Part shown: positions 1,901-30,215 of the stretch, piece by piece | Layout: every line of letters starts with the position of its first letter | Position numbering within the stretch: the first letter of the stretch is position 1 | NCBI GenBank assembly: GCA_012295275.1 | Contig: CM022667.1 | Location: forward strand, 7,440,001 to 7,504,000 | Source: Chrysomallon squamiferum | Taxonomy: Eukaryota; Animalia; Mollusca | Length of the DNA: 64,000 nucleotides | Direction of reading: 5' to 3' | Program-made: the position numbers and the translations under genes | Notes under the pieces: model-generated | What the model saw: the letters and a program-made list of their open reading frames with translations, nothing else | Databases searched by the model: none | Told to the model about the DNA's origin: nothing

Positions 1901-3043
1901 ACTATATTCCGGAAATAAAATGTAATGACAATTGAATTCGAGAAACATATATTATTTTTAGGTGTTTTGCCATCAGGATATTCCAGTAACAGCAAATATG
2001 TATGAGTGGTACGTTTTTTTAATTATTAAACTTATGACAGGTGTTCATTGTTTATGTTAATTAGCAATAAATAATTTTCAGTAACATTGGTATGTCGGTG
2101 ATGTTCTAAGAATTTAAATTGAAGCAAAATTTAATTTTTTATCTTGTCTGTAAAACTTTTAAGCAAAAAGTAAACGTTTGCGCATAATATTTAAATATAT
2201 ACAAAACAGTATTTGTTTCGAAAATTATTTTAAAATATTTCGTCAGTACTATACATAAATATATTGATAAAATATAATCACGATTGTGTATCTTACAATA
2301 ATATTTGTGTATAATCTGATTCATAGTCACTGATAATAAAATTATATAACGCTGTATTTCTTAATGCAGAGTATTTAAATAGTATTAAATGATTCCTTTA
2401 TCATCATGAAATACTATTTGTTAAGAAATTTTAAATTAGGTCACTTTTGTTGTTGTCAATTAAACACCGAATCCATCAGATCTCAGTGAAATTTGATATA
2501 CTAGATGACTTACAGGAAATAACATATCAGTCTCTACGTTTTGAGATGTAGGTCAACAAAATATTGTTAACTAACAAAAAAATACAGTGATATAAGCTTT
2601 TGTAAAAATGCATATTTTTAAAACTTTTCATAAAATACAGTTACAGATGCAAGAGGACAAATTTCAGATGGGACAGATAAACATTTCTAACGAGGAACTT
2701 GTTGATATCTGCACCAGTAGTTACTATTACATAATTAAATAACAGAGTTATGTTACACATTGCCTTTAACTTCTGTACTGACCTCAGACTACTGACTGTA
2801 GTGTTAGGCAGATCATGTGACAAAGGCTCAGCTATGTATCAAAACAGTATCATATATAAACAATATAATTACATCTGTATTTTTCTAAATGATTGTTTTC
2901 TTTGATGCTGATCTTACTTCTTTGCTAATAATAAAATAAGTGTTTTTAATGTTCCAAAATATTTTCAATACCTTTTTTTTTTTATTTGTTTTAATTCTGT
3001 CATAGTGAAATATATCTATTTTAACTTCAGAGTAAAATAAAAA

Positions 3044-3297
3044 ATGAAATTGGAGAAATTTGAAATTGCTTTTGACAATCCCCGAGGTGTGTTCTGTTCT
3101 GGTGAGCAGGTTCGAGGAAATGTCATCATCTCTCTCACGCAGCCTATGAAGATGAGAAGTGAGTTATCAGTTACCAAAATGTTGTATCTAATTTAAAAAG
3201 TTAAAAAAAAAAAAAAAAAATAATAATAATAATTAATGAATATTCTCAAAGTGCCTGTTAACAATATATCAGTCATGTGTGTAACCATCAATTTGCT

Positions 3298-3358
<61 letters not shown>

Positions 3359-6339
3359 CTGTGTAATCTATTGTGCCGTAGAACTGACTTACCAGTTAGA
3401 AAGCTATGTCACTTTTTTTTGTGTTCAATTTCAGAAATTTCCTTGTACTTTGAAGGCCGTTCAAAGTCACATTGGGAAGTTAAACATGGACGCAGTAAAA
3501 CAGATTACAGAGCAAATGAACCTTACATTCATCATGTGATGCTCTTGTTTGGAAGAGGTAAAAAGGAACTTTGCATTTACTCTGTAAAATCCCACAAGAA
3601 AAAAAATGTTAATAATTCTTACCTGTAATAGTTTCTATTTGTTTACAGATGAATCCAGTCAAGAACATCCTGCTGGTTATCATACATACCCATTTGCTTT
3701 GATGTTGTCACCAAACTTACCTTCTTCATTTGAGGGTCGCCGTGGTTACGTCAGATACTTCTGCAAGGCAACTATTAACCGACCATGGAAATTTGATGAG
3801 CACACAAAAAGAGCTTTCACAGTAATCCACCATCTGGATTTAAATTTCATGCCTGAAGCAATGGTAATAAAATTTGTTGACATCTTTTAGTTCAAATTAC
3901 TGCTTTTATCCAAGTCTGTATACATCATCACACTTTATTCTTAGTAAACAGACTGGCTTGGAGGAACAAATAAAACAGTAAGGAATTATATATATATTTG
4001 TTTTCAGATAAATATAGTTTTTATAACAGTCAGTGGAGATATCTTGTTTTTTGCAGATGCCGATAGTTGCTGAGCAGGAGCAGGCAATTGAAGGATTCTG
4101 TTGTTCTGCTGGGTCAGTGTCTGCACGACTACAACTTCCAAAGACAGGCTACGTTCCAGGTGAACCCTTAGCTTACAGCGTCGCTGTGTACAACAGATCT
4201 GACAACAAAGTTGACAAAATACAGCTAGAGTTAAAACAGGTCAGTGAGCACATCATTTACATTTTTAAATCTTTACATTGAGTAATATATATATTTATTG
4301 AATTACTTACATATTTATTCAGTGCATTGAGATGTTTACATATCTAATGTATTCACTTAGATATTTACTTTGATATATACACTAAGTTATTTACATAATT
4401 TATTGAATACACTGAATCATTTACATATTTATTTAATACACTGAATAATTAACATATTTTTTGAATACTTTGATGTTTATGTTATGAAATAATGATGTTT
4501 GATAATGAATTAAACTGTAACTAATTTTGTTAACAGATAGTTAACTACACAGGCTATTCTGACAGCTTATTTTCGTCTGGTCATCCGAAACAGCACACGA
4601 AGGTTGACCAGATTTCTCTCTACACACACCCATGTAATGTGAAGAAACACTCAGAGGAGCACCTCAGCCAGATCGCCACCATTCCAGCTCTGCCTCCTTC
4701 AAAACTGGAGGGCTGCAGCATCATCGACATTACATACATCTTGTCTGTGAGTTTTTTACAAGTAACGTTTACTTATTTCTTGTCTGTGAGTTTTTCACAA
4801 GTAACTTTTACTTATTTCTTGTCTGTGAGTTTTTTACAAGTAACATTTACTTATTTCTTGTCTGTAAGTTTTTTTACAAGTAACGTTTACTAATTTCTTG
4901 CTGTGAGTTTTTTCACAAGTAACTTTTAGTTATTTCTTGTCTGAGAGTTTTTTTACAAGTAACTTTTAGTTATTTCTTGTCTGTGAGTTTTTTACAAGTA
5001 ACGTTTACTTATTTTATGTCTGTGAGTTTTTTACAAGTAACTTTGACATTTCTTACTTGTCTGTAATTTTTCTTACAAATAACTTTGAAATATTTGTTTA
5101 CATATTTCTGATAATGATAATATGCTGGGAGACATGTCTTTTTAAATTTTAAATGTAAATATGTGTCTGTTATTTTGTGTTTGTACAAGTTTTGTCAGAT
5201 GTGTTGAAGTCAAAGAATGTACAATGTGCAAATCCTTGGTTTTCATTGATGTTTTATTTATTTTAATTTTGACACTTCTTGTGTGAAGTTGAACATCAGT
5301 GTGGGTTGGACGAGTTTTACCGTGGAGAGGATGATCATCATTGGAACTATTCCTATACAGCAGATTCCTCTAGTGCCTTCCTCTGAACCCTCAGCACCTC
5401 CATTAGAACCACCAGAATATTCAGAACGTGTGTATCACCCTTAATTCAAACAAAAAACATATTTACTTACAATCAGATATATATTGCATGGTCACTGAAA
5501 AATACAGAATCCATAAAATAGAAATAAATTTAAAAGTAAAAAATATGTTCATTATTTTTAAGTTACATACTAGAACTGTTTGACATCACAATACAGTTTA
5601 TTGTTATACAAGAGTTGATATTAATGTTATCTAGTACAAGAGTTAATATTAATGTTATCTAACTCTAGAGTTAATGTTATCTAACACAAGAGTTGATATT
5701 AATGTTATGTAACACTAGAGTTGATATTAATATTAATATTATCTAACACTAGAGTTAATATTAATGTTATCTAACACTAAAGTTGATATTAATGTTATCT
5801 AACACGAGTTGATATTAATGATATCTAACACTAGAGTTGATATTAATGTTATCTAGTACAAGAGTTGATAGTAATGTTATCTAATATGAGAGTTGATATT
5901 ATCTAATACAGCAATTGATGTTAATGTTATCTAAAACTTGAGTTGATATTAATGTTATCTAAAACTTGAGTTGATATTAATGTTATCTAACACTAGAGTT
6001 GATATTAATGTTATCTAGTACAAGAGTTGATAGTAATGTTATCTAACACTAGAGTTGATATTAATGTTATCTAACACTAGAGTTGATATTAATGTTATCT
6101 AACACTAGAGTTGATATTAATGTTATCTAACACTAGAGTTGATATTAATATTATTTCTGTATTTAGCTCCACCATCGTATGAGGAGAGTTTTCTACACGT
6201 TGCTATGGGAGATGAGGTGGAGGAGGCTCACACAACTGGAGGTATGGCCAACTGGACCCCGTCGTACATCTACTACAACTGGAACCAGCCCACTCAGCCT
6301 GTCCCCTCCATTCCTCCACCTGCCTACAACCAGCTTTGA
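3044..6339 (+). CDS. Alpha-arrestin / arrestin domain-containing protein (ARRDC family), 7 coding exons, 385 aa
   Basis: Exons 3044-3158, 3435-3557, 3649-3863, 4057-4239, 4537-4746, 5289-5427, 6167-6339 join in frame through GT-AG introns (1158 nt). Translation has alpha-arrestin hallmarks: MKLEKFEIAFDNPRGVFCSGEQVRGNV, GYHTYPFALMLSPNLPSSFEGRRGYVRY..KATINRPWKFD, LPKTGYVPGEPL, IPALPPSKLEGCSIIDITYIL, IIIGTIP, then a Pro-rich tail with PSAP, PPEY, PPSY and PPAY. Paralogue identity cannot be assigned. Confidence 0.93.
3299..3357. repeat. (CA)n microsatellite in arrestin intron 1
   Basis: Pure AC dinucleotide run. Confidence 0.97.
4741..5090 (+). repeat. 39-40 bp tandem repeat containing the exon-5 splice donor of the arrestin gene (~8-9 copies)
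   Basis: Unit TTGTCTGTGAGTTTTTTACAAGTAACGTTTACTTATTTC. The first copy overlaps the last 6 nt of exon 5 and the true donor (GT at 4747). Confidence 0.92.
5610..6150. repeat. 28-bp minisatellite (~19 copies) in arrestin intron 6
   Basis: Unit AGAGTTGATATTAATGTTATCTAACACT, running up to the polypyrimidine tract of the last exon. Confidence 0.95.
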
Positions 6340-13400: not shown

Positions 13401-13980
13401 AATGAATGAATATGCAATAAAAACACAATTTAAAGAAAAACTGTCATCTCGGTGAACTTTAACACTGTGACATCTATACATTTAATTCACCATTATCAAA
13501 AATTAAAAATCAGTAATATATATATATATATATATATATATTTAAATTTATTTTTTATAACAGTAAAATTAAGTACATGTTAAGTTTTAAAATAATAGTA
13601 TTTTCAGTAACAAGTTCAAACTGTTTGGCCTGGATCAATTTACAGTTTTTAATATTTTCTTTATTTATAAACATACATTTTTTAACATTTCTTTTAACCA
13701 ACAAACATTTTAATTAAAAAAATCTGTCCCTTCATAATACTGATGTCACAATTTATTTTAAAAAGATGTAGAAAAATATTGGTAAATTAAATAAGTCAGT
13801 TCAGAAAGGTTACTTGTTACACAATTTGAAGTTGATATTTATTCTCAGTAACCCGTTCAAAGAAAACATTATTGCTTATTAAAATATATTCATTCACCCA
13901 GTGAACTGCCATGAGTTCAGTTTAAATGCTGGAACAATACAAACGTTTATAATAAAAGTTATGAAAAATAATTATAATTT

Positions 13981-16900
13981 TTAATGTTTGGTGATTTTTG
14001 ATGAAGTGTTGCCAGCGACTGCCTGCCAGATGTTGCCTGCACCACTGTACACTGCTTTCACTGCTCCAGACACTGCAGTTGTCACAGATGAGAACACACC
14101 TGTTAGATCAGGTGGACTGGAATAGGACAAATAAATAAATAAATAAATAAATAATGATATATCTATTATCTGTTTAAACAAAACAAAACAAATAAATAAA
14201 AGTTAAACATTAATTAAAAAATAAAATAACACTGGCCAGTTTTAAATCAGAGAAAGATATTCATGATCAGACATTTTTTAGAAACTTTCCACATACTCAT
14301 GAGTCCCAGAGGAAAGTTTTCTTATGTAAATATCTGTGAATACAAGTGTGCATGTTCTGTATAGGTGTTTCTATAGATAAATACAATTATATGTTGAATA
14401 CAAGTGTGCATGTTCTGTATAGGTGTTTCTATAGATAAATACAATTATATGTTGAATACAAGTGTGCATGTTCTGTATAGGTGTTTCTATAGATAAATAC
14501 AATTATATGTTGAATACAAGTGTGTATGTTCTGTATACGTGTTTCTATAGATAAATACAATTACACGTTGAATACAAGTGTGTATGTTCTGTATATGTGT
14601 TTCTATAGATAAATACAATTACACATTGAATACAAGTGTGTATGTTCTGTATATGTGTTTCTATAGATAAATACAAGTGTGTATGTTCTGTATATGTGTT
14701 TCTATAGATAAATACAATTACACATTGAATACAAGTGTGTATGTTCTGCATGTGTTTCTATAGATAAATACAATTACACATTGAATACAAGTGTGTATGT
14801 TCTGTATATGTGTTTCTATAGATAAATACAATTACACATTGAATACAAGTGTGTATGTTCTGCATGTGTTTCTATAGATAAATACAATTACACATTGAAT
14901 ACAAGTGTATGTTCTGTATGTGTTTCTATAGATAAATACAATTACACATTGAATACAAGTGTGTATGTTCTGCATGTGTTTCTATAGATAAATACAATTA
15001 CACATTGAATACAAGTGTGTATGTTCTGCATGTGTTTCTATAGATAAAAACAATTACACATTGAATGCAAGTGTGTATGTTCTGTATATGTGTTTCTATA
15101 GATAAATACAATTACACATTGAATACAAGTGTGTATGTTCTGCATGTGTTTCTATAGATAAATACAATTACACATTGAATACAAGTGTGTATGTTCTGTA
15201 TATGTGTTTCTATAGATAAAAACAGACCCATCTACCTGACGTACTTCTCAACGATGTAGCTGAGAACGAAGATTGTCACACAGATGAAGAGGATGAGGGC
15301 TGCAGTGTCAATGGTCTGCCAGATGTCGTGGAAGTAAGTTCCTATAGAATACACGTCAACAGTCGGCTTTGGTTTGATGTCAGCTTCGATTGTTTTAACT
15401 TCAAGTTTGGACTGAACAATGCGAGTTGTGTTCTCAACATGATCAATCTCATCCTTGTTGCTTGTTTCCTGCAAACAAAATAAACTTTTATCTATCTATG
15501 TATAACTAATTCTTTTACAGCAAGATTTTTCTCAATTTAAGTTTCAATTAGTCATAAATATATAAATATTTCTTTAAAACTCAAACATGACACAATGTAT
15601 GATTATCATAAAGCACACAGCTTTACAGGCAAAAATTTAGTAGCAAATATATATGTTAATTATTTCGATGGAGTAACAAACTAATTATTTCTATCTCATT
15701 CAATACTTCCTAAACCTTAATGATCTGTGTTTCCTTTTCAGTTCGACCCTGAGTTTTGAGTGTAGTTGTTTTAGTAATTACTTCAGTCTGACGTGACTGT
15801 CGAACTGCTTTCTCTTTCTCTGCAACACGACTGCGAGACGACGAACGTGATCGTGAGCGACTGGATGTTGTCTTTGGTGATTTGGGTTTCTTTGTGCCAG
15901 CTCGACTTCTCGAACGAGATCTTGACCTCGACTTGCCACGCGATTTCTTCAGTTCCTGAAAGAGAATCAACTGATGTACAGTATACTCAACTAACTCCAT
16001 TTTAGATATATATTACTCTAAGGATGTTCATGAAAATAAGTACTGGACAAAAGTATTGATATAGAAAAAAAAATAAAATAAAAATGTCCACAAATAACAA
16101 CAGCCATTCTCATGATTATGTTCTTTCACAATATTGTGTTATTGAAACTGTATAATTATTAATTTTTTTTAATGAATATCAATTTAATAAACATTACCTG
16201 TGCAAATCATTTTTTTAAACTGAAAATGAAGTAAGCTATATATCTCTCTTTTTTTTAAAACTATATTAATTATATAAAATCAAACATACAGTACTCTTCT
16301 TGATGAAGTTTTTAATGACATTAGGACAATGCTGCAAGTTCTTTTCTGGTTCCCAGGTGTCCTCGGTCTCCTCAAATCCTTTCCACCGTACAAGGTATTC
16401 GAGAATACCCTTACGTTTTCTTTGTTTTAGAATTGTGTCAACCTGCATAGAGTCAAAAATATTATTCTGTATTTTATAATTGCTTTTTTAATTTTAAGGG
16501 AAGAAATAACTGTTTAGGAGATTGTTGTTATATGAACTGTTACATTTATAGATATAAGAAATTAATTTTACTTAAAGCACTCCATCAAAAACAAAATATC
16601 AAATCAAAACAACTGTGCACTTTTTGCATGAAAAGTAAATAATCTAAAAGATTTCACATGGGCAACATATAACATTTAACTAATTAAAACTTATAAAAAG
16701 TTAAAGCAAACTGGTAAATTATTATTTTATAATATTATTAATAAATAATACATGTACAAGCAGTGTTGAATGATTTTTTTTTTTTTTTTAACACAGAAGA
16801 AGCAATCGGCGCCTTCACTTCATGTCAGACAACCATAAAATAGCTGGTCTCAAACTATGAAAGAATAAGGAACATTTACGATAGCAGGTGTTACCCTTTC

Positions 16901-17309
16901 GACGCTTTGTTAAGTATTTAACAAAATAAACAAAGAACAATAAAAAATATCCAACATAACATGAACACCTTATCCAGCTTGAAAACACTTTTTAAAAATA
17001 TATATAGACATAAATACTCAGCATGTTATTAAATTATAAAATGCTAGAGGTTTACATTTATGAGATGACAGCTGAAAATCTAAGATTTGGATTTGACAAC
17101 AAAAGGGACGCTACTCCCAAACTGGAACTGGGACACTTGATAAAGTATAATATAATCAGTAACAGATTACATAACGTTACAATTTTAGTTAGTTCATAAC
17201 AGGCATTTATTGAGACAGCAAGGCATGATAAAATATTAATTCATATTACGAAAAAAAATAAGATTTCCATACAAACCTCATAACCACTATCACTGTCGGA
17301 ACTCGCCAT
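13981..17309 (-). CDS. Chromodomain-containing protein with RS-rich region and one C-terminal transmembrane helix, 5 exons, 264 aa
   Basis: Minus-strand exons 17309-17277 (MASSDSDSGYE), 16442-16290 (VDTILKQRKRKGILEYLVRWKGFEETEDTWEPEKNLQHCPNVIKNFIKKST), 15955-15716 (RS-rich), 15468-15236 (ends with hydrophobic TAALILFICVTIFVLSYIV) and 14116-13981 (TAA). All introns are GT-AG and phase-consistent (795 nt). The chromodomain signature YEV..I...R......EYLVRWKGF....DTWEPE.NL is canonical. Confidence 0.85.
14338..15222. repeat. 56-58 bp minisatellite (~15-16 copies) filling most of the last intron of the chromodomain gene
   Basis: Unit GAATACAAGTGTGTATGTTCTGTATATGTGTTTCTATAGATAAATACAATTACACATT, with variant sub-blocks. 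It begins about 13 nt from the exon-4 donor. Confidence 0.96.
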
Positions 17310-17970: not shown

Positions 17971-18945
17971 AAAAATAATAAAATTGAATTTCATTCCAAC
18001 TGCATTAAATTCTGCCCAATTTTTTAAACAAACTTACAAAGGTTTTATATCAGTGTTAGAAAGTTTAAAATTAAAAACATTAATTATTAATGGAATTATA
18101 TAAAGAATACAGCATCCATTTATTTCTTTAATGAAAATGTGTTGCAGTAACATTAATGAACTGATCGCCATAATTGACTTTTCTAGTAGATACATAGATT
18201 GATAACGATATATAGACAGAAACATTCATTACGTAGAAGTTGAAAAAATTCGAATTATTATAATTTATATCGGCAATGAATCAGAACTGTTGACTTAAAA
18301 ATATAAACAAATATATATATATTTTAAAATTCACTGACAAAAATCTGTTTGCATTATCATGATTATGTATTACATATGAACTTTTATTAAACATGATATA
18401 TGCAAATGTTTTTGAAAATAAAGAATAATATATTTTTCTTTAATTTTTTTTATGTCTGTATTATAATAATTTGTATTAAATATGAGTTATGTGGAAATAT
18501 GTTTTTGAAAATGAAAAAGAATATTTTAGCTTTTTTGTTTAATAAATTTGCAATAATTCACAGTTATAAAAAAAATATTTTTGTGAAGTATAGTCAACTG
18601 TACATGTTTTACTGTGTATAGCTCACTGGTTAGAGTTACAGGCTAAATATTAATCAATTCAGTTATATACCATTCTAACCAGTACCCTCTGATTTAACTT
18701 CCTTGCTGATACTGAAAAGTATTATTGTTTTAGTATTGTCAGTAATAACATGTTAAACACTATGTTACTGTATTATCATAAAAACTTTATTTCATATACT
18801 TTAGTTTTCATTCCAGATTTCACAGAAAAAGGTTAATGATGAGCCTTATTAATAAAGAAATATTCATTTACTGACAGCATTTGAAAAAACAACAACACGA
18901 GAACTGTTGTGAGGCAATTTTTGCTGAAAGAGAAAATATACAATC

Positions 18946-21590
18946 ATGGGCAATGGTATGAACAAGGTATTTGTAGAAAGACAGTTATTATTATTAATAT
19001 TTTTCTTATGTCTTCTTTTTCTATGTCTCCATCTTATTATTATTAATATTATTATTTGTAAGGTATAAAAATCTTATATTTTTGTGTAATAAATTGAAAG
19101 TAAATTTATTTTTTTCAGATTATTGAGGGTCTGTATGTGGGTAATTTTCGAGATGCCAAAGATGAAGAAGAGTTGAAGAAAAATAGAATCACTCACATTT
19201 TGTCCATCCACGACAATGCTAAACAGCTCCTAAAGGTTTGTCTTATCTCATGTATGCTTTTGTTTATCTAAATTATCCCTTATCTGGAACCCTCTGTGAT
19301 AGAATGTAAATAATCTACAAAGTCTTTATGTTACAAAGAAAACATTCAGTAACATCTTTTACATAAAATACATAGACAAACACATTCAAATTAAAATAAC
19401 TAAACATTAAAAATTATACTTCATTTTATTTTTAAAAGCTTATTAGATAATACAGCTGATGTCTTCAGTATCAGCACATATAATATTTAATTACTTTTGT
19501 TTTTTTAATTTTTTATGGAAATTTCGGAAATAATAGTTAATGTGTCATGCTGTTTAAGTTGAAGTTAGTGTTAATATTTAATGTAATGTTGATGTCTGTT
19601 GAGGAATTCATACTAAAATACTTCAGATGAGATAATTCTGTTTCTATTGTGTACTGTATACCAAATGTTGTAAGATTATTTATAAAGTACCATACTAGAG
19701 TTGAAGATTATTTACACTGGAAGTTAATAAATTATACTAAATAATTAAATAAATAAACCCACCTTTTGTTTATCTCGTGTTATTATTTAGCTGATGGTGT
19801 AATATGTGTTATGTTTTATGATCTGTTTGCAGGTCGTGACATACCTGTGTATTACAGTCAGATTTAAAACATTCAGCTACACTTAATTTCACTTCTGATA
19901 AAATTAATGTATTTGGTTTGCAGGACAAGACATACCTGTGTATTACAGTCAGATTTAACACATTCAGCTACACTTAATTTCACTTCTGATAAAATTAATG
20001 TATTTCGCTTGCAGGACAAGACATACCTGTGTATTACAGTCAGATTTAACACATTCAGCTACACTTAATTTCACTTCTGATAAAATTAATGTATTTCGCT
20101 TGCAGGACAAGACATACCTGTGTATCATAGCTAGTGACAGTCCGGATCAAGACTTGACTCAGCACTTTCCGCAGTGTGTTGACTTCATACACAGCGCTCG
20201 ACTCAACAATGGCCGAGTTCTTGTTCACTGGTGAGAAACATTTGTCACGGTTATTTAATGGAATGTTTAGGCACATTTCATAATTCTCTTCAAGATGCTA
20301 CGTAGTTCAGGTATTTATCTACAGGTATATAGATAAAACTGAGCATGATACAAACTACATGCACTCATTGCACATACCAATACTGAATTTTAAAAATGTG
20401 AAAACCATGAAATCTTGAATTTGTTATGATTGAGAAACATAAAATACATTAACAATTCTTTTTATGAAGCAGTGTCATTTGAAAAATATCTGATTTTACT
20501 TATAGGTTGACATCATATCACAATTATCATGTTTATAAAATAATTTTTTGTGACATGTCACTGTTTAAAGCTTTTTTATTTTTTTTATTTTATTGAAATA
20601 CGTATTTGTTACAAATGCTTTTTGGACTGTGTTTGGCTAATAAATAACTGTAATTCTGTTTGAAATTATTTCAGTTTGGCTGGAGTGTCTCGGAGTGTCA
20701 CTATAGCAGCAGCCTACATAATGACTGTCACTGAGTTCGGCTGGCGCGACTCTCTGCACGCTATACGAGGAGCTAGAAACTGTGCAAACCCAAACTTTGG
20801 CTTCCAGAGACAGCTAATGCGTTATGAAAGTGAAAAACTCGCTGAGGTAAACATTTAAAATATTGATTTCACTTGATTCTTTTTCTCTCTTTTTAAACAG
20901 CAGTTCTATTATTAAAAATTGTTTTGGACAAAAGTATACACAATATACACAATAAATAAAAGGAGACAATTCATCTTCAAACAAACTGCATTTGTCAGAG
21001 TTTAGTGTGCTGTTGATTATATCTGTTATAGTAATTATTGATATTTATAAACAAAATTCACTGACAAATATCAAGCTTTTTTAAAGATAGCAGTAGTTTA
21101 TATCAGTGTGATTAATAGGAATATTACTAACAGACATTTTTTCTTATTAACATGAATGTAAGTAAAGTTGTTTTGTTTCAAGGAGAGGAAGCGACTGAAG
21201 GAGGAGTTTGCGTCAGTGGTGAATGACGATGATGCTGAGGTGAGGCAGCTGCTGGTGGCCTACAACAAGTTTGTACTGCATGGACCTTCCTGCGACGACT
21301 ACCCCCTGCCCCTCGACGCCTACAGCAACCGCAAGAAGTCCAACAGATGTGACAATGATGATGAAGAGGAAGTTAATGGGAACACAGTTGCTGTCAGTGA
21401 TGATGTTGATAAACAGAACATGAAAGGAGATATAGCTACAACTAGTGATGATGATGATGATGATGATAAGCAGGTTAATGGAGATGGAGCTACTGCTGGT
21501 GATGTTGATGTTGAAGACAGATGTAGTACACATCAGACCGATGTAAACAGTGGTGATGATGTAGAGTATGTGAGAGAAACAAACAGGTGA
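18946..21590 (+). CDS. DUSP22: Atypical dual-specificity protein phosphatase, DUSP22/DUSP15 family, 5 exons, 280 aa
   Basis: Exons 18946-18966 (MGNGMNK), 19119-19235 (IIEGLYVGNFRDAKDEEELKKNRITHILSIHDNA), 20106-20230, 20675-20846, 21183-21590 join in frame (843 nt). The catalytic motif VHCLAGVSRS is split by a phase-2 intron (TG|T). General-acid loop ASDSP, AAYIM and ANPNFGFQRQL motifs are present. The N-terminal MGNGMNK matches the myristoylated DUSP22/15 start. Confidence 0.93.
19826..20126 (+). repeat. 91-bp tandem repeat (3.3 copies) containing the exon-3 splice acceptor of the DUSP gene
   Basis: TTGCAG-GACAAGACATACCTGTGTAT recurs with CAG at 19830-32 (variant copy), 19921-23, 20012-14 and 20103-05. 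The last is the functional acceptor. Confidence 0.93.
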
Positions 21591-24721: not shown

Positions 24722-25008
24722 TTAAATCTATATGGGATTGAAGAATCCAATAACATAAAGTCACAATGAAATGTTATATTTTCCCATTTCGACATTCAAC
24801 ATTAGAAGGATTACTGAGTTGCAACTGGGAGGACAGCAGCAAACAATAAACAAAAGTCTAATATTTCTTATTTCCATCCAAACAGTTTCCAAGTTGTGTT
24901 TTACAAATTTACTAATACCTCTAGCTGCGGAAATTACTAGACTATTTTAAACAAATGAGCAATAAATTAATATCACAACCCTGTTTGTCAGTCACATTTA
25001 AAATAACA

Positions 25009-25877
25009 TCATCTCTGTCCAATCAGCTCCTGAGTAGCAGTTTTCAAAATCACACTGAAATCTACTGACAAATGACTTCTCCAGAACCTTCTGACTCTTC
25101 CCCAGGTTAGACTGGGAAAACAGGGACTGGCAATCCCGTGAAAGATTCGAGCAATGACTCTGCCAGTCAGACTGTGTTCATGTCCATACAGACCGATAAA
25201 CTGACGTATGTCCATTACCAGCTGATCTAAATCTCGACTGCTGGACAAGTTCTAAAAAAAAAAAAAAAAAATATAAAACATATAAAAAAGGTAAAAAAAA
25301 AAAAAAAAAAAAAAATTATCAGTGTTAGAAATTTTGATTTTCTTTAATACTATACAAATAAAGCCATTGTTGTCCTTTCATGTGCTATTTCTAATTCTTT
25401 TTTTTTAACAGCAACAAAAATATTTTCACTTAATTTACAATCAGAAATGTGTATTTCAAAATCTTTATTAAACCAGTAGTCAGACTGGACAAATAGCTGG
25501 GTGTGAGTGTGTGTGTGACCTGGTCAGTTATCTTTACCTGTGTGCACATTTCTTCTTCCTTTGCTTCACTCATGCGTGACTCGACGGATGTGTCATTTTC
25601 AAAGTAGTCTTCGATGAAACTTCTCAGTCTGTTACTCTTGTTCACATCTGCTTCATCACAGCACATCCAGTAGTTTCTGTGAGCAGTGCTAGATTACAAA
25701 CACTTACTGTGAGCAGGACTTTTTTTTAGAAAAATTACATAATAGTTACACTCACACTTACAAGTGATCAGCAACACAAAAAATCTTCATAAGATGTTTA
25801 AGTGAATATCAGTAATTATAGATTTTGCTGTTCTCTCAGTCTTTCTCACTCAGTCTGTCTTTTTCACACATATATCA

Positions 25878-25911
<34 letters not shown>

Positions 25912-27712
25912 AATAAATAAATAAGTAAATAAAATATAATATGATAAAACAAAACAAAAAAATAATAAAATAAAACAAAATAAAAATAATAAAAATAATA
26001 AATAAATAAATAATAAAAAAGAGAAAATTACGTTTTGAGAGATTTGTGTAAGAGATGAAGCTGGAAGAGTTCTCTTTCTTCCTGTTTGCGAACTCTCTCA
26101 TGCAGGAAGTCAATAACTTCATCAATTTCCTCCTCACTCAGATCTCCGGGGGAACGAAAGTGAAATGCCAAATCAGAAAACTCGACCATCACCCCAGTTT
26201 TTGATGCTCCTCCTAAAACATATCAACATACTATAAAGATATGTTGCAGATGAAAAAGTTTTAAAATAAACATACAGTTTGCATTTTTGCTTTGAGTGTA
26301 GCCACTGATTTACTATTTAACTTGTGTATAATTCAAGAAATCTGTAAAGAAACAAATTACAAATGTACAAAACTAATGAAGAATAACTGTTGTGTAAGAA
26401 TTTCCTAAACTGAGTTATTTCCCCTGTCCCTATCTCTCTGATGAGCAGTCAGGTTTTGACGTAATTATTCACTCTGAGATGGCCAGCTATTGTTATTTTT
26501 TTTTCAAATAAAAAATTAGGGTAAAGGCAACTGTCTAACCACCCAAAAAAACAACAAAAGAAAACAAAAAACAGTAGAAATAATCCTTTCTGTCAGAACT
26601 TGATAGATATTGTTCTCTTTGAATAATTATGTTGTAGCCTATGTTTTTTTTATCTCCCTAATTATCGGAGCACCTGCTTTTACATTTTTAAACAGCTCTG
26701 TTGGATACACTAAGTTACAACAGACTTGTAACAGTTACCTGTCATTAGAAGCATCTGTTACGTACATGAAAAAAGAAAAAGACGCAATATTAAAAAAATT
26801 CTGTGTGTTTGTGTGTGAGACTATTTGTGTGTGTCTGTGTATATCTATATATCATTATATGAGTGCATGTTTATCTGTATCTGTGTATATGTGTGTGTTT
26901 TTTTGGGTGTATGTGTCTGTGCATGAACAAACATAGTAAATACATTGTAATTAATGTTAACTAGGAGATGAATGCATAAAAAAATTTTTCATTGTCATTT
27001 CAGAGACAGTAATGATTTCATAATAGAAAAAAAAAAAAGAAGAATAATCAAATAAGGGAATCATTGATTACATCAGGGTTTTTTTATTGCAATATTTTAT
27101 TATCAACAAAGATTTGCCACCTATCTCAAATATTTTATTAGTAGTAAATATTAGTCACCTGTAATACAGAAAAAAATTGTATTTCAACTAAAAGAAAAAT
27201 TCAAGTGAAATATTTATTTCAAGTTAATTTATATTAACAGAAAAATATATTTTTTTTCTTAATGGACCTGAACAAAAAAAACATATTTCCACTAATAAAT
27301 CTATAAATGCTATAAATAATAAGTTATTTAGCTGGCTAATCACTAACACAAATGTTTGTTAGACTAGCTGTTTTCTTTTCTCTTTCCATTCTCAGGTTGC
27401 AGGGAAATGAAAGATCTGATGTCTTCAAAGCTGACATGAGAATGGAAGATGAAACACTTGTGAGAAGAAAGGTCAATATAATTTGATTATTCAGTAAAAA
27501 GGAATCATGTTCACGTAACACTTTGATTTGTAACAGAATTATCTTCATTGTCCAAGTCTATATTGAGACAGAGGATTAAATGAGATTAATTAGGAAGTGA
27601 CATTTCAGTTAGCAATAATAGGTTAATTATATACTATTGTCCTTACAGCATCAGCATATATATATATATATATAATGTGTGTGTCTTTAGTGTAGGTGTT
27701 TGAGAGATAGAC

Positions 27713-27806
<94 letters not shown>

Positions 27807-29875
27807 TAGATATGTGTGTGTTTATTTTGTGTTTCTTGTTTGCCTCTCTTGCTTGATATTTATGTCTCTTTGTATATATGTGTTGTGCAGTGTGTGAGTA
27901 TATGTGTCTGTGTGTATTTGTTTAAAACATTTATATACTGATGCATTTGAAGTCTGAAGAAGATTGAAAGTTTTCTCTTACATCATCTGTTTCACTAATC
28001 TTTTTCTTCTAACATTTATTGATTTTAAAATCTGCTGAAAGAAAGAGAGCACAAAAAAACCACAACAAAAATGTTTTAGAGATGAATGTTTTCACCCACC
28101 AACAAAATGTCATTATACTGCTACATTTTCACTTCACATGAATAATGCTGCTTAGTAAAAGAAGGCAAAAATGTTGAGTCAGCAGAATTCTTCTTTCACA
28201 TTAAAACACATGTAATGTCTGTAACTTCAAAAATATTCTTTTTGTGATTTAAATAAATGGTGACAATACTTTACACTGATGTTTTGGTGTTTAAGTTCAA
28301 CGTACCTGGTTGCAGATTCCACTGTAGTAGTCGTAGTTCCCGTTTCACTGGCCCAGAGTCCCAGCCCATGCTGTCACTCACTTCAACAACATCAAACTCA
28401 ACACTGCTGCAGTCACCAAACATCTTACCCTCCATTCTCTGCCTCGCTATAGCAACCGCGACTGGTGGGCACTGAATTAATGTTTTTATTTTTATTTTTA
28501 GTATTAGTATTATACTGATATCATATCAAACACACACATCACAAATACGCACATATACCTATACACAAATACACATATTTAAAACTTATCTATTCTTTTT
28601 ATGTCATGTATTAAGTTTAATAATAATAATAATGTTAATAATAATGATAATAATAACAACAACAATAATAATTATAATAAAAACATTTAATGGGTATGGT
28701 TTATATTTTAAAAATTCTAATGTGTATGCAGTATTTCACTATGTAGAAGTTCTTGTATTCTATTCACTTTATTCAGTGAAATACTCAGTAAATTAATACT
28801 GAGTTAATTAAATTTAGTGTTTGATGTAAAACATTCAAATTGTGTTTTAAAAACTGTGATGTCCTAAAGAAGATAAAAATAAACTTAAAATAACAACTCT
28901 CAGTATAAAAGCATTATAAAAAAATACCTAATAACACTGATATAAAAACATTAATTACTTATTCACATATAAATTTTGTGACCACTAATCTCAGCATCTT
29001 TTAACAAGAGATTAAAATAGACAACACTACCCTCCAAAATTAAATTGTTCTCAAAACATAAAAAGAAAGAAATAGTTTGAACAATTTAATTTGTTACAAA
29101 AGTCTAGAGAGTAAATTGGTTCATGTAAGTTCTGCTAAGAATGGAGTCAGAATCAACTGTTCTTCATAAAACATTTAGAGAATTTAATTTTCCTATGACC
29201 TTGTCTCAAATCATACTGAATTAATTTTTGTATATTATAATTATTGTAATATATATATATTATTTTATAATAAATGTATTTTCACTGTTTGGGTGAAGGT
29301 GGACTGAGATGTCAGACAGTAATGTTATAAATATATAAGAGTTTATTAACTTCACTTGACAACACAGTACCTGAACAGACTAACTACTTTTAATTTGAAG
29401 TATTGTCCTTAAGTTTATTTACACCATAAGCAAAAAACAAAAGAATAACTATTTATTTAATTATTTCAATTATTTTCTCATTGTAATATCAAAATGAAAT
29501 AAAGATTATAATTCACTTAAAATGATTAAACAGGAAACTAAAATTAATTTTTTCAACCTTTTTGGCGACAGCCTGGAGCTGGGCGGGGCCTGCGTAACAC
29601 TGGAGTCTACACGTGGAGTAGACTGGCTGCAGGTTCTCCAGCCACTCATACCCGTGAAGCTCTAGATAACACAGCAGTGTGGAAATTCCTGCAAAATAAT
29701 GAACACAACAATATAATAACTAAACAAAGAAAACAACAAAATAAGTAAATATAAAAGAGGTAATTTCACCTTCTTCTCTCACATCGAGTGTGTTCACTGT
29801 GTGCTGGATAGAAAGAGCTCGCTCATGTCCCGGACACACCCGGTCAGCAGACGTCCCTCGGCTAGAACTCTCATC
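25009..29875 (-). CDS. RECQL4: ATP-dependent DNA helicase Q4 (RECQL4), last six coding exons (5' part not seen in window)
   Basis: Minus-strand exons 29875-29770, 29688-29558, 28471-28306, 26212-26032, 25688-25538, 25251-25009 join in frame (978 nt including TGA). Translation [105 protein letters not shown] matches the RECQL4 zinc-binding/C-terminal region. Helicase core exons are absent from the window. Confidence 0.93.
27716..27801. repeat. (GA)n microsatellite in a RECQL4 intron
   Basis: Pure GA run of about 43 units. Confidence 0.97.
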
Positions 29876-30215
29876 CTGAAATAAACACACAAATAAAACT
29901 TTCATTTTCTCAGAAGTTTCTCTGTGTTGAGTTAACAAACGTTTAGAATTTCTGCAAGTCATTAACAAATTTCAGACATAAGTTTTCATCTGCAGTTATA
30001 AATGTTTGAAGTTGAAGACTTCAGCATACAGTTATAGCCATACTAAAACTATAAAAATGCTGTTAAAACAAAGTTGCCAGCCATTCCATATAAACATAAA
30101 ACTTGTTTCAAAACAGAATATTTGAACATTAAAAGAACAAAATGTTTTGCTATGATTATGTTAGGTTGACATCCAGAATGTTTATTTTTAAATTTCTGCC
30201 AACTTTTGTCTTGGT

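Follow-up and report, generated by a model that had tools for sequence, protein, structure and literature searches.

A gene on the minus strand of a 64,000-nucleotide stretch of Chrysomallon squamiferum DNA (the window, below) is real, transcribed and spliced, and encodes in one chain a chromodomain, a basic RS block and a predicted transmembrane helix. This architecture is apparently undescribed. By analogy with known proteins, we put at about even the chances that the product is an integral inner-nuclear-membrane tether binding methyl-lysine chromatin, which would combine a build like that of LAP2beta or emerin, a reader like that of CEC-4 and an RS block like that of LBR.

The anchoring of methylated heterochromatin at the nuclear rim differs between mammals, which use LBR, LAP2 and PRR14-HP1, and worms, which use CEC-4. 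Mammalian anchors reading histone marks and bridging to the inner membrane were described in a 2016 review as still to be found (PMC4783997). If the tether reading is true, this 30-kDa chain, with its reader, RS switch and membrane helix, would represent such an anchor in its simplest form. It would also give a first entry point to nuclear organisation in molluscs, and would lend itself to testing whether chromatin is moved or silenced by tethering as such. Lineage-specific tethers would have a precedent, since the Tudor-reductase LBR is reported from animals only (PMC5630835) and worms, described as lacking LBR, use CEC-4 (PMC7111258).

Structure and splicing of the gene

Scripted joining of five exons yielded a frame of 795 nt with zero internal stops, encoding 264 aa, and GT-AG borders were found at every intron. 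All features of the gene lie on the minus strand. The coding part of exon 1 (17277-17309) provides 11 aa, comprising the start codon, a Ser/Asp-rich leader and the cage residue Tyr10, and an in-frame stop is placed two codons 5′ of the ATG. Exon 2 (16290-16442, 51 aa) encodes most of the chromodomain, including W31, F34, E38 and the Ala-pocket residues V12, V29 and L47, and is supported by Pfam, PDB neighbours, a structural model and RNA. The long form of exon 3 (15716-15955) consists of a core (15782-15955, 58 aa) containing the RS/basic block and the start of the linker, with RNA joints, and of an alternative extension (15716-15781, 66 nt) adding 22 aa of linker. Exon 4 (15236-15468), also seen in RNA, encodes the polar linker, an aromatic, amphipathic-looking stretch (around residues 180-197) and the hydrophobic segment, whose predicted transmembrane helix maps to 15250-15306. 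The coding part of exon 5 (13981-14116) ends the protein with a Ser/Thr/Ala/Gly-rich tail, the sequon N256 and the stop codon. A probable 3′ UTR (13518-13980) was deduced from the lengths of RNA contigs, which cannot show RNA ends; candidate 3′ ends near 13629 and 13518, obtained in the same way, each fall some 30 bases past an AATAAA. GC content is 0.40-0.50 in the exons, 0.35 in the optional extension of exon 3, and 0.22-0.27 in the introns. Most of intron 4 is filled by a satellite of 56-58 bases (14337-15224), which stops a short way from the exon 4 donor.

Of five public runs that contain the stretch, four, from one study, are recorded as RNA, and the transcript evidence consists of assembled contigs, not reads, from these four. 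Contigs were compared over 15225-16460; exons 1 and 5 lie outside this interval and were judged from the loose ends of contigs. Intron 2 (334 nt) was spliced out in all four runs, and so was intron 3, whose length is 247 or 313 nt depending on which of two donors is used. As these donors are 66 bases apart and both in frame, isoforms of 264 and 242 aa are produced, the two joints to exon 4 being present in 4/4 runs. The shorter side of the exon 3-4 joints counts 23-29 letters, below the 31-letter threshold for a bridging record. At exon 4, the contig loose end is identical to the start of exon 5 over 30 bases (4/4 runs), and at exon 2 it corresponds to exon 1 (2/4 runs). The sequence-only reading had proposed five phase-consistent exons, and the GT-AG introns, the open frame and the RNA joints for introns 2 and 3 agree with it. 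Its single 264-aa product does exist, but the alternative donor, and with it the 242-aa isoform, had been missed; use of this donor would alter the length of the tether by 22 residues. The junction of exons 4-5 to the chromodomain exons, on which the proposal depended, is upheld by the intron 2 and 3 joints and the exon 5 loose ends in all runs, although no single contig from the four runs spans from chromodomain to helix. As for a helix-less isoform, zero contigs of the four runs extend into intron 3, an observation that contigs cannot turn into proof of absence. One low-depth contig from one run continues from exon 3 into intron 2 (15935-16184), and corresponds to pre-mRNA, a retained intron or DNA.

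A chromodomain with a complete aromatic cage

The canonical N-terminal chromodomain predicted at first sight was confirmed by a Pfam match in exon 2 (PF00385, Chromo, E 1.7e-17). Its aromatic cage (Y10, W31, F34) is complete and spaced as in HP1alpha, Y10 being assigned by this spacing, as exon 1 was outside the aligned and folded query. The PDB neighbours closest by sequence are CBX5, CDYL2, HP1 and CDYL, and MPP8 aligned over 48 residues with zero gaps. A model of exon 2 built from an 18-row alignment (pLDDT 93.4) was superimposed by Foldseek on the MPP8-H3K9me3 structure with an rmsd of 0.7 Å over 49 columns. Matches to HP1alpha, MPP8-H3K9me3, CBX1, CDY1, CBX2 and Rhino were about equal, which means that no one chromodomain subfamily is favoured. 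The pocket that accommodates Ala(-2), formed in CDY1 by V8, V26, W28 and L44 (bioRxiv 10.1101/820647), is kept here as V12, V29, W31 and L47. Three-residue cage and Ala(-2) pocket, the hallmarks of a canonical methyl-lysine-binding chromodomain, are thus both present by sequence.

The clasp positions are occupied by G9 and Q48, that is, neither by the acidic polar fingers of HP1 (Cbx5 E19, D58) nor by the hydrophobic pair of Polycomb (Cbx7 V10, L49), so that a choice between K9 and K27 marks is not callable from sequence. Changes in the clasp of Cbx3 and Cbx7 abolished binding, and the same report links a basic chromodomain to weaker histone binding (PMC3013012); the present domain is basic, with a pI of 8.8. 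We expect the domain to bind ARKS-type methyl-lysine, with an affinity that is possibly low, and consider it likely that a histone mark is the ligand.

RS block, predicted membrane helix and tail

Residues 63-107 form an RS repeat block of the LBR type, with 18 K+R, 1 D+E, 8 RS dipeptides (four of them consecutive) and five RxRxxS/T motifs. The basic RS region of the sequence-only reading therefore stands, but its SPK CDK-type site is reduced to S88-P, the sole minimal S-P site in the block, with a Thr at +3, which falls short of the full CDK consensus. Pfam matches of the block to coronavirus nucleocapsid and CBP30 were sub-threshold and compositional, and were discarded. The polar linker that follows has 74 residues, or 52 in the short form.

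The helix of 19 aa (residues 197-215) contains zero charged residues and has a Kyte-Doolittle mean of 2.64, as judged by simple scales and not by a trained predictor. Of 5000 shuffles of the whole protein, 1 had a mean this high, as did 11 of 5000 when the part encoded by exons 4-5 was shuffled. In a single-sequence model of exon 4 (pTM 0.36), exon residues 39-76 make one helix, with a pLDDT of 95-97 over the transmembrane segment. We conclude that the helix, already noticed by eye, is very likely real. The tail after it does have 49 residues and the sequon N256, as had been described, but its amphipathic look is only modest, being reached in two runs by 95 and 128 shuffles out of 5000, and a second sequon, N155, had been overlooked in the linker, N-terminal to the helix. 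With sequons on both sides of the helix, a sequon alone says little on topology. Pfam assigned no family to exons 4 and 5, even with E values of up to 10 allowed, and searches with exon 4 in Atlas clusters and with its model against PDB folds both returned zero matches.

Comparison with envelope and chromodomain proteins

LBR is described as having an N-terminal reader, an RS block in which four RS dipeptides follow one another, basic segments and a membrane anchor (PMC5617974). According to the same source, its basic segments together with the first helix are enough to bring it to the envelope, and the RS block oligomerises and helps to compact chromatin, which is released upon phosphorylation by SRPK1, Akt and CDK1. 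The likeness lies in the order of parts: a Royal-family reader at the N-terminus, an RS block with a run of four RS dipeptides, then a membrane anchor. The differences are that LBR has a Tudor domain, eight helices and a sterol reductase, whereas a chromodomain and one helix are found here, that the SRPK1 docking motif RSRSPGR is absent, and that no sequence match was detected. The lack of Tudor and reductase stated in the sequence-only reading was verified: Pfam found no LBR Tudor family in the protein, whose fold matches are chromodomains, and no C14 sterol reductase domain, in keeping with the one helix and the stop in exon 5. The sterol reductase family was also absent from the 161 GC-rich window frames scanned (180 had been selected, and the frames overlapping the gene itself were set aside). 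Nothing in these comparisons suggests descent from LBR. In the earlier description as an LBR-like single-pass anchor, the likeness is confined to the RS block; the single helix, placed near the C-terminus, is closer to that of LAP2beta, emerin and LRRC59, and the reader to that of CEC-4, a protein not known to have a transmembrane helix.

Like the present protein, CEC-4 has an HP1-like chromodomain. It is described as envelope-associated, and as anchoring H3K9-methylated chromatin at the rim, the perinuclear role proposed here, without silencing it (PMC4783997, PMC7111258). With LAP2beta, emerin and LRRC59 the protein would share a chromatin-binding part at the N-terminus, an extended polar linker, a single helix close to the C-terminus and a short luminal tail, the last being a prediction. 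LRRC59, whose one helix is followed by a luminal tail of 40 residues, is inserted into the ER and then enters the inner nuclear membrane in a way that depends on size (PMC6359192), and membrane-anchored forms of LAP2 tether heterochromatin (PMC12992122). Contrary to these proteins, ours has neither a LEM nor an LRR domain (no LEM or LEM-like domain was matched by Pfam in the protein), and would read a histone mark directly instead of through BAF.

The closest structures, by sequence and by fold, belong to HP1/CBX5, CDYL1b/CDYL2 and MPP8, but those proteins are soluble and differ at the clasp. No HP1 chromoshadow domain was matched in exons 3-5, a weak match (E 0.074) falling on the chromodomain itself. 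Besides the Polycomb clasp, the PcR box is missing, exons 4-5 containing no Pfam family, and the enoyl-CoA-hydratase part of CDYL is absent by Pfam. Nor did Pfam match in the protein the ankyrin repeats found at the C-terminus of MPP8. By domain content, the protein belongs to none of the LBR, HP1, CDYL, MPP8, Polycomb or LEM families, in line with the initial impression that it matched no named family. In the literature searched, which leaves out most subscription journals, no report was found that combines a chromodomain and a transmembrane helix in one protein. A lead on its origin may come from the placement of intron 1. In human CDYL1b, a splice site at the start of the chromodomain sets the first cage residue apart, on the exon upstream (PMC2787366). 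Here too an intron lies just past the first cage residue, an arrangement that is alike in outline, the text compared giving neither the phase nor the precise position in CDYL.

Searches for relatives

Word-based searches with single exons, which are insensitive, found neither exon 4 inside longer proteins (0/56 candidates) nor a relative of exon 2 (0/4 candidates, E 1e-8). An HMMER search of 1.84 billion representatives produced no orthologue among the best 150 of 5312 matches, all of which have at least two matched stretches, and a profile search with exon 2 (7984 candidates) produced none among the best 120 of 2550. Tandem-chromodomain proteins dominate the matches listed, a single domain being present in 2 of the 251 proteins scored. 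The listing thresholds were 68 bits for HMMER and 78 for the exon 2 profile, to be compared with self scores of 107 and 131, and domains about 55% identical score some 55 bits. It follows that chromodomains more than roughly 65-70% identical are excluded among the scored proteins; more distant relatives could sit among the 5162 and 2430 lower-ranked matches. For the profile search, which covered 5.8 billion clusters, this means that the best-ranked matches include no relative with a single chromodomain and an identity above about 70%. In Atlas, exon 2 hit generic chromodomain clusters.

Among 253 chromodomain proteins that were fetched, nearly all with several chromodomains, identity to the present domain was at most about 55%, and the C-terminal 124 residues matched none (best E 0.3). 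A Kyte-Doolittle mean of at least 2.5 over 19 residues was reached by none of them, and a mean of 2.0 by two. Exon 4 did match 19 metagenome loci, at 41% over 29 hydrophobic residues on gut-metagenome contigs, which we take as chance. Viral contigs gave 0/27 candidates, exons 2, 4 and 5 were absent from the sequence collection upon exact look-up, and tblastn revealed no second copy of the gene within the 64-kb window.

One of the two fetched proteins that reach a mean of 2.0 is Cimex lectularius XP_014255481.1 (“chromobox protein homolog 5-like”), in which three chromodomains are followed by a hydrophobic stretch of 15 residues (Kyte-Doolittle 2.57), nine residues before the protein end. It resembles the window protein in its chromodomains only. 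A near-identical relative is carried by a Logan contig of 1030 bases, and the closest fetched relatives have no such stretch. This is possibly an independent tail-anchored chromodomain protein.

A candidate chromatin tether and the alternatives

If the protein is a tether, it would sit as a single-pass protein in the inner nuclear membrane and hold chromatin marked with methyl-lysine, most likely H3K9me2/3, at the rim. On insertion in the ER, the helix is predicted to leave the 49-aa tail in the lumen and to keep the N-terminal part, of 22.6 kDa, on the other side of the membrane; as this part is folded and highly charged, such an orientation is the most likely. This small basic part would then pass the nuclear pore and be retained by chromatin binding (diffusion and retention). 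The chromodomain would bind ARKS-type methyl-lysine, probably weakly and without a strict choice between K9 and K27, while the RS block may add DNA or histone contact and self-association; its phosphorylation by SRPK, Akt or CDK could free chromatin in mitosis, as for LBR. By analogy with the proteins above, a location at the nuclear envelope is probable. Counting for the tether are the splicing, the spacing of the cage, the Ala pocket, the fit of the model to MPP8-H3K9me3 and a helix far beyond shuffles, whose hydrophobicity none of the 253 fetched proteins equals over 19 residues, as well as the parallels offered by the four-RS run and targeting of LBR, the topology of LRRC59 and the precedent of CEC-4. 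Against it count the lack of a detected orthologue, and with it of any sign of joint conservation of helix and chromodomain, the atypical clasp (G9/Q48), the basic domain (pI 8.8), the absence of the SRPK1 docking motif, the minimal CDK site and the use of simple scales for hydrophobicity.

Unlikely, though the best placed of the alternatives, is that the protein resides in the membrane of the ER or envelope with a chromodomain that binds a non-histone methyl-lysine, nucleic acid or little at all, any chromatin contact being provided by the RS block. The clasp and the basic domain would fit such a protein, and structure entries show related chromodomains on non-histone methyl-lysines (MPP8-DNMT3A, CBX7-SETDB1). 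LRRC59, with the same topology, is located in both ER and envelope (PMC6359192). However, the residues of the cage and of the Ala pocket are all kept, and so basic an RS block favours nuclear retention (PMC5617974).

It is rather improbable that the gene is a recent, lineage-limited chimera, made of the duplicated 5′ end of a CDYL-, MPP8- or HP1-type gene and two captured exons, with little or no selected function. Such an origin would account for the failure to detect relatives of exons 4-5 or, in the best-ranked matches from the 5.8 billion clusters, a relative with one chromodomain and more than about 70% identity. The short first exon carrying the first cage residue, as in human CDYL1b (PMC2787366), fits it as well. 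Exons 4 and 5 nevertheless have a coding-like GC content (0.43 and 0.49, versus 0.22-0.27 for introns), both donors are in frame, and splicing was seen in 4/4 runs. Moreover, the cage is intact despite an identity of at most about 55% to any fetched protein, a sign of long-lasting selection.

That the protein belongs to an invertebrate family already annotated, and possibly described, beyond the reach of our searches has a small probability. The matches listed were the best 150 of 5312 and the best 120 of 2550, almost all tandem-chromodomain proteins, which leaves room for such a family, but the literature searched (most subscription journals being outside) contains no such protein, and exons 4-5 are without a Pfam family even at E 10.

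Least probable of all is a membrane-held precursor from which a protease frees the chromodomain-RS part: the predicted topology would suit it, as SREBP- and ATF6-type factors have a nuclear-type domain outside the lumen and a short luminal tail, but the helix is devoid of Gly, Pro and Asn and the tail of Arg, so that the features usually needed for site-1/site-2 or SPP cleavage are missing.

Neighbouring genes

An arrestin-domain (ARRDC-like) gene, the last exons of which contain PPxY-type motifs, occupies 3041-6339 on the plus strand. GC-rich frames at 25000-30000 on the minus strand and beyond resemble exons of at least one further gene, and have no Pfam match. Pfam matches to DSPc identify a dual-specificity phosphatase gene (18945-21590, plus strand), which we assume to be DUSP22/15-like. 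The phosphatase and chromodomain genes are arranged head to head, with start codons about 1.6 kb apart, and a shared promoter is possible. Within the phosphatase gene, a tandem repeat of 91 bases in 3.3 copies (19827-20125) duplicates a 3′ splice site and the first bases of an exon, so that several candidate acceptors are available for this exon.
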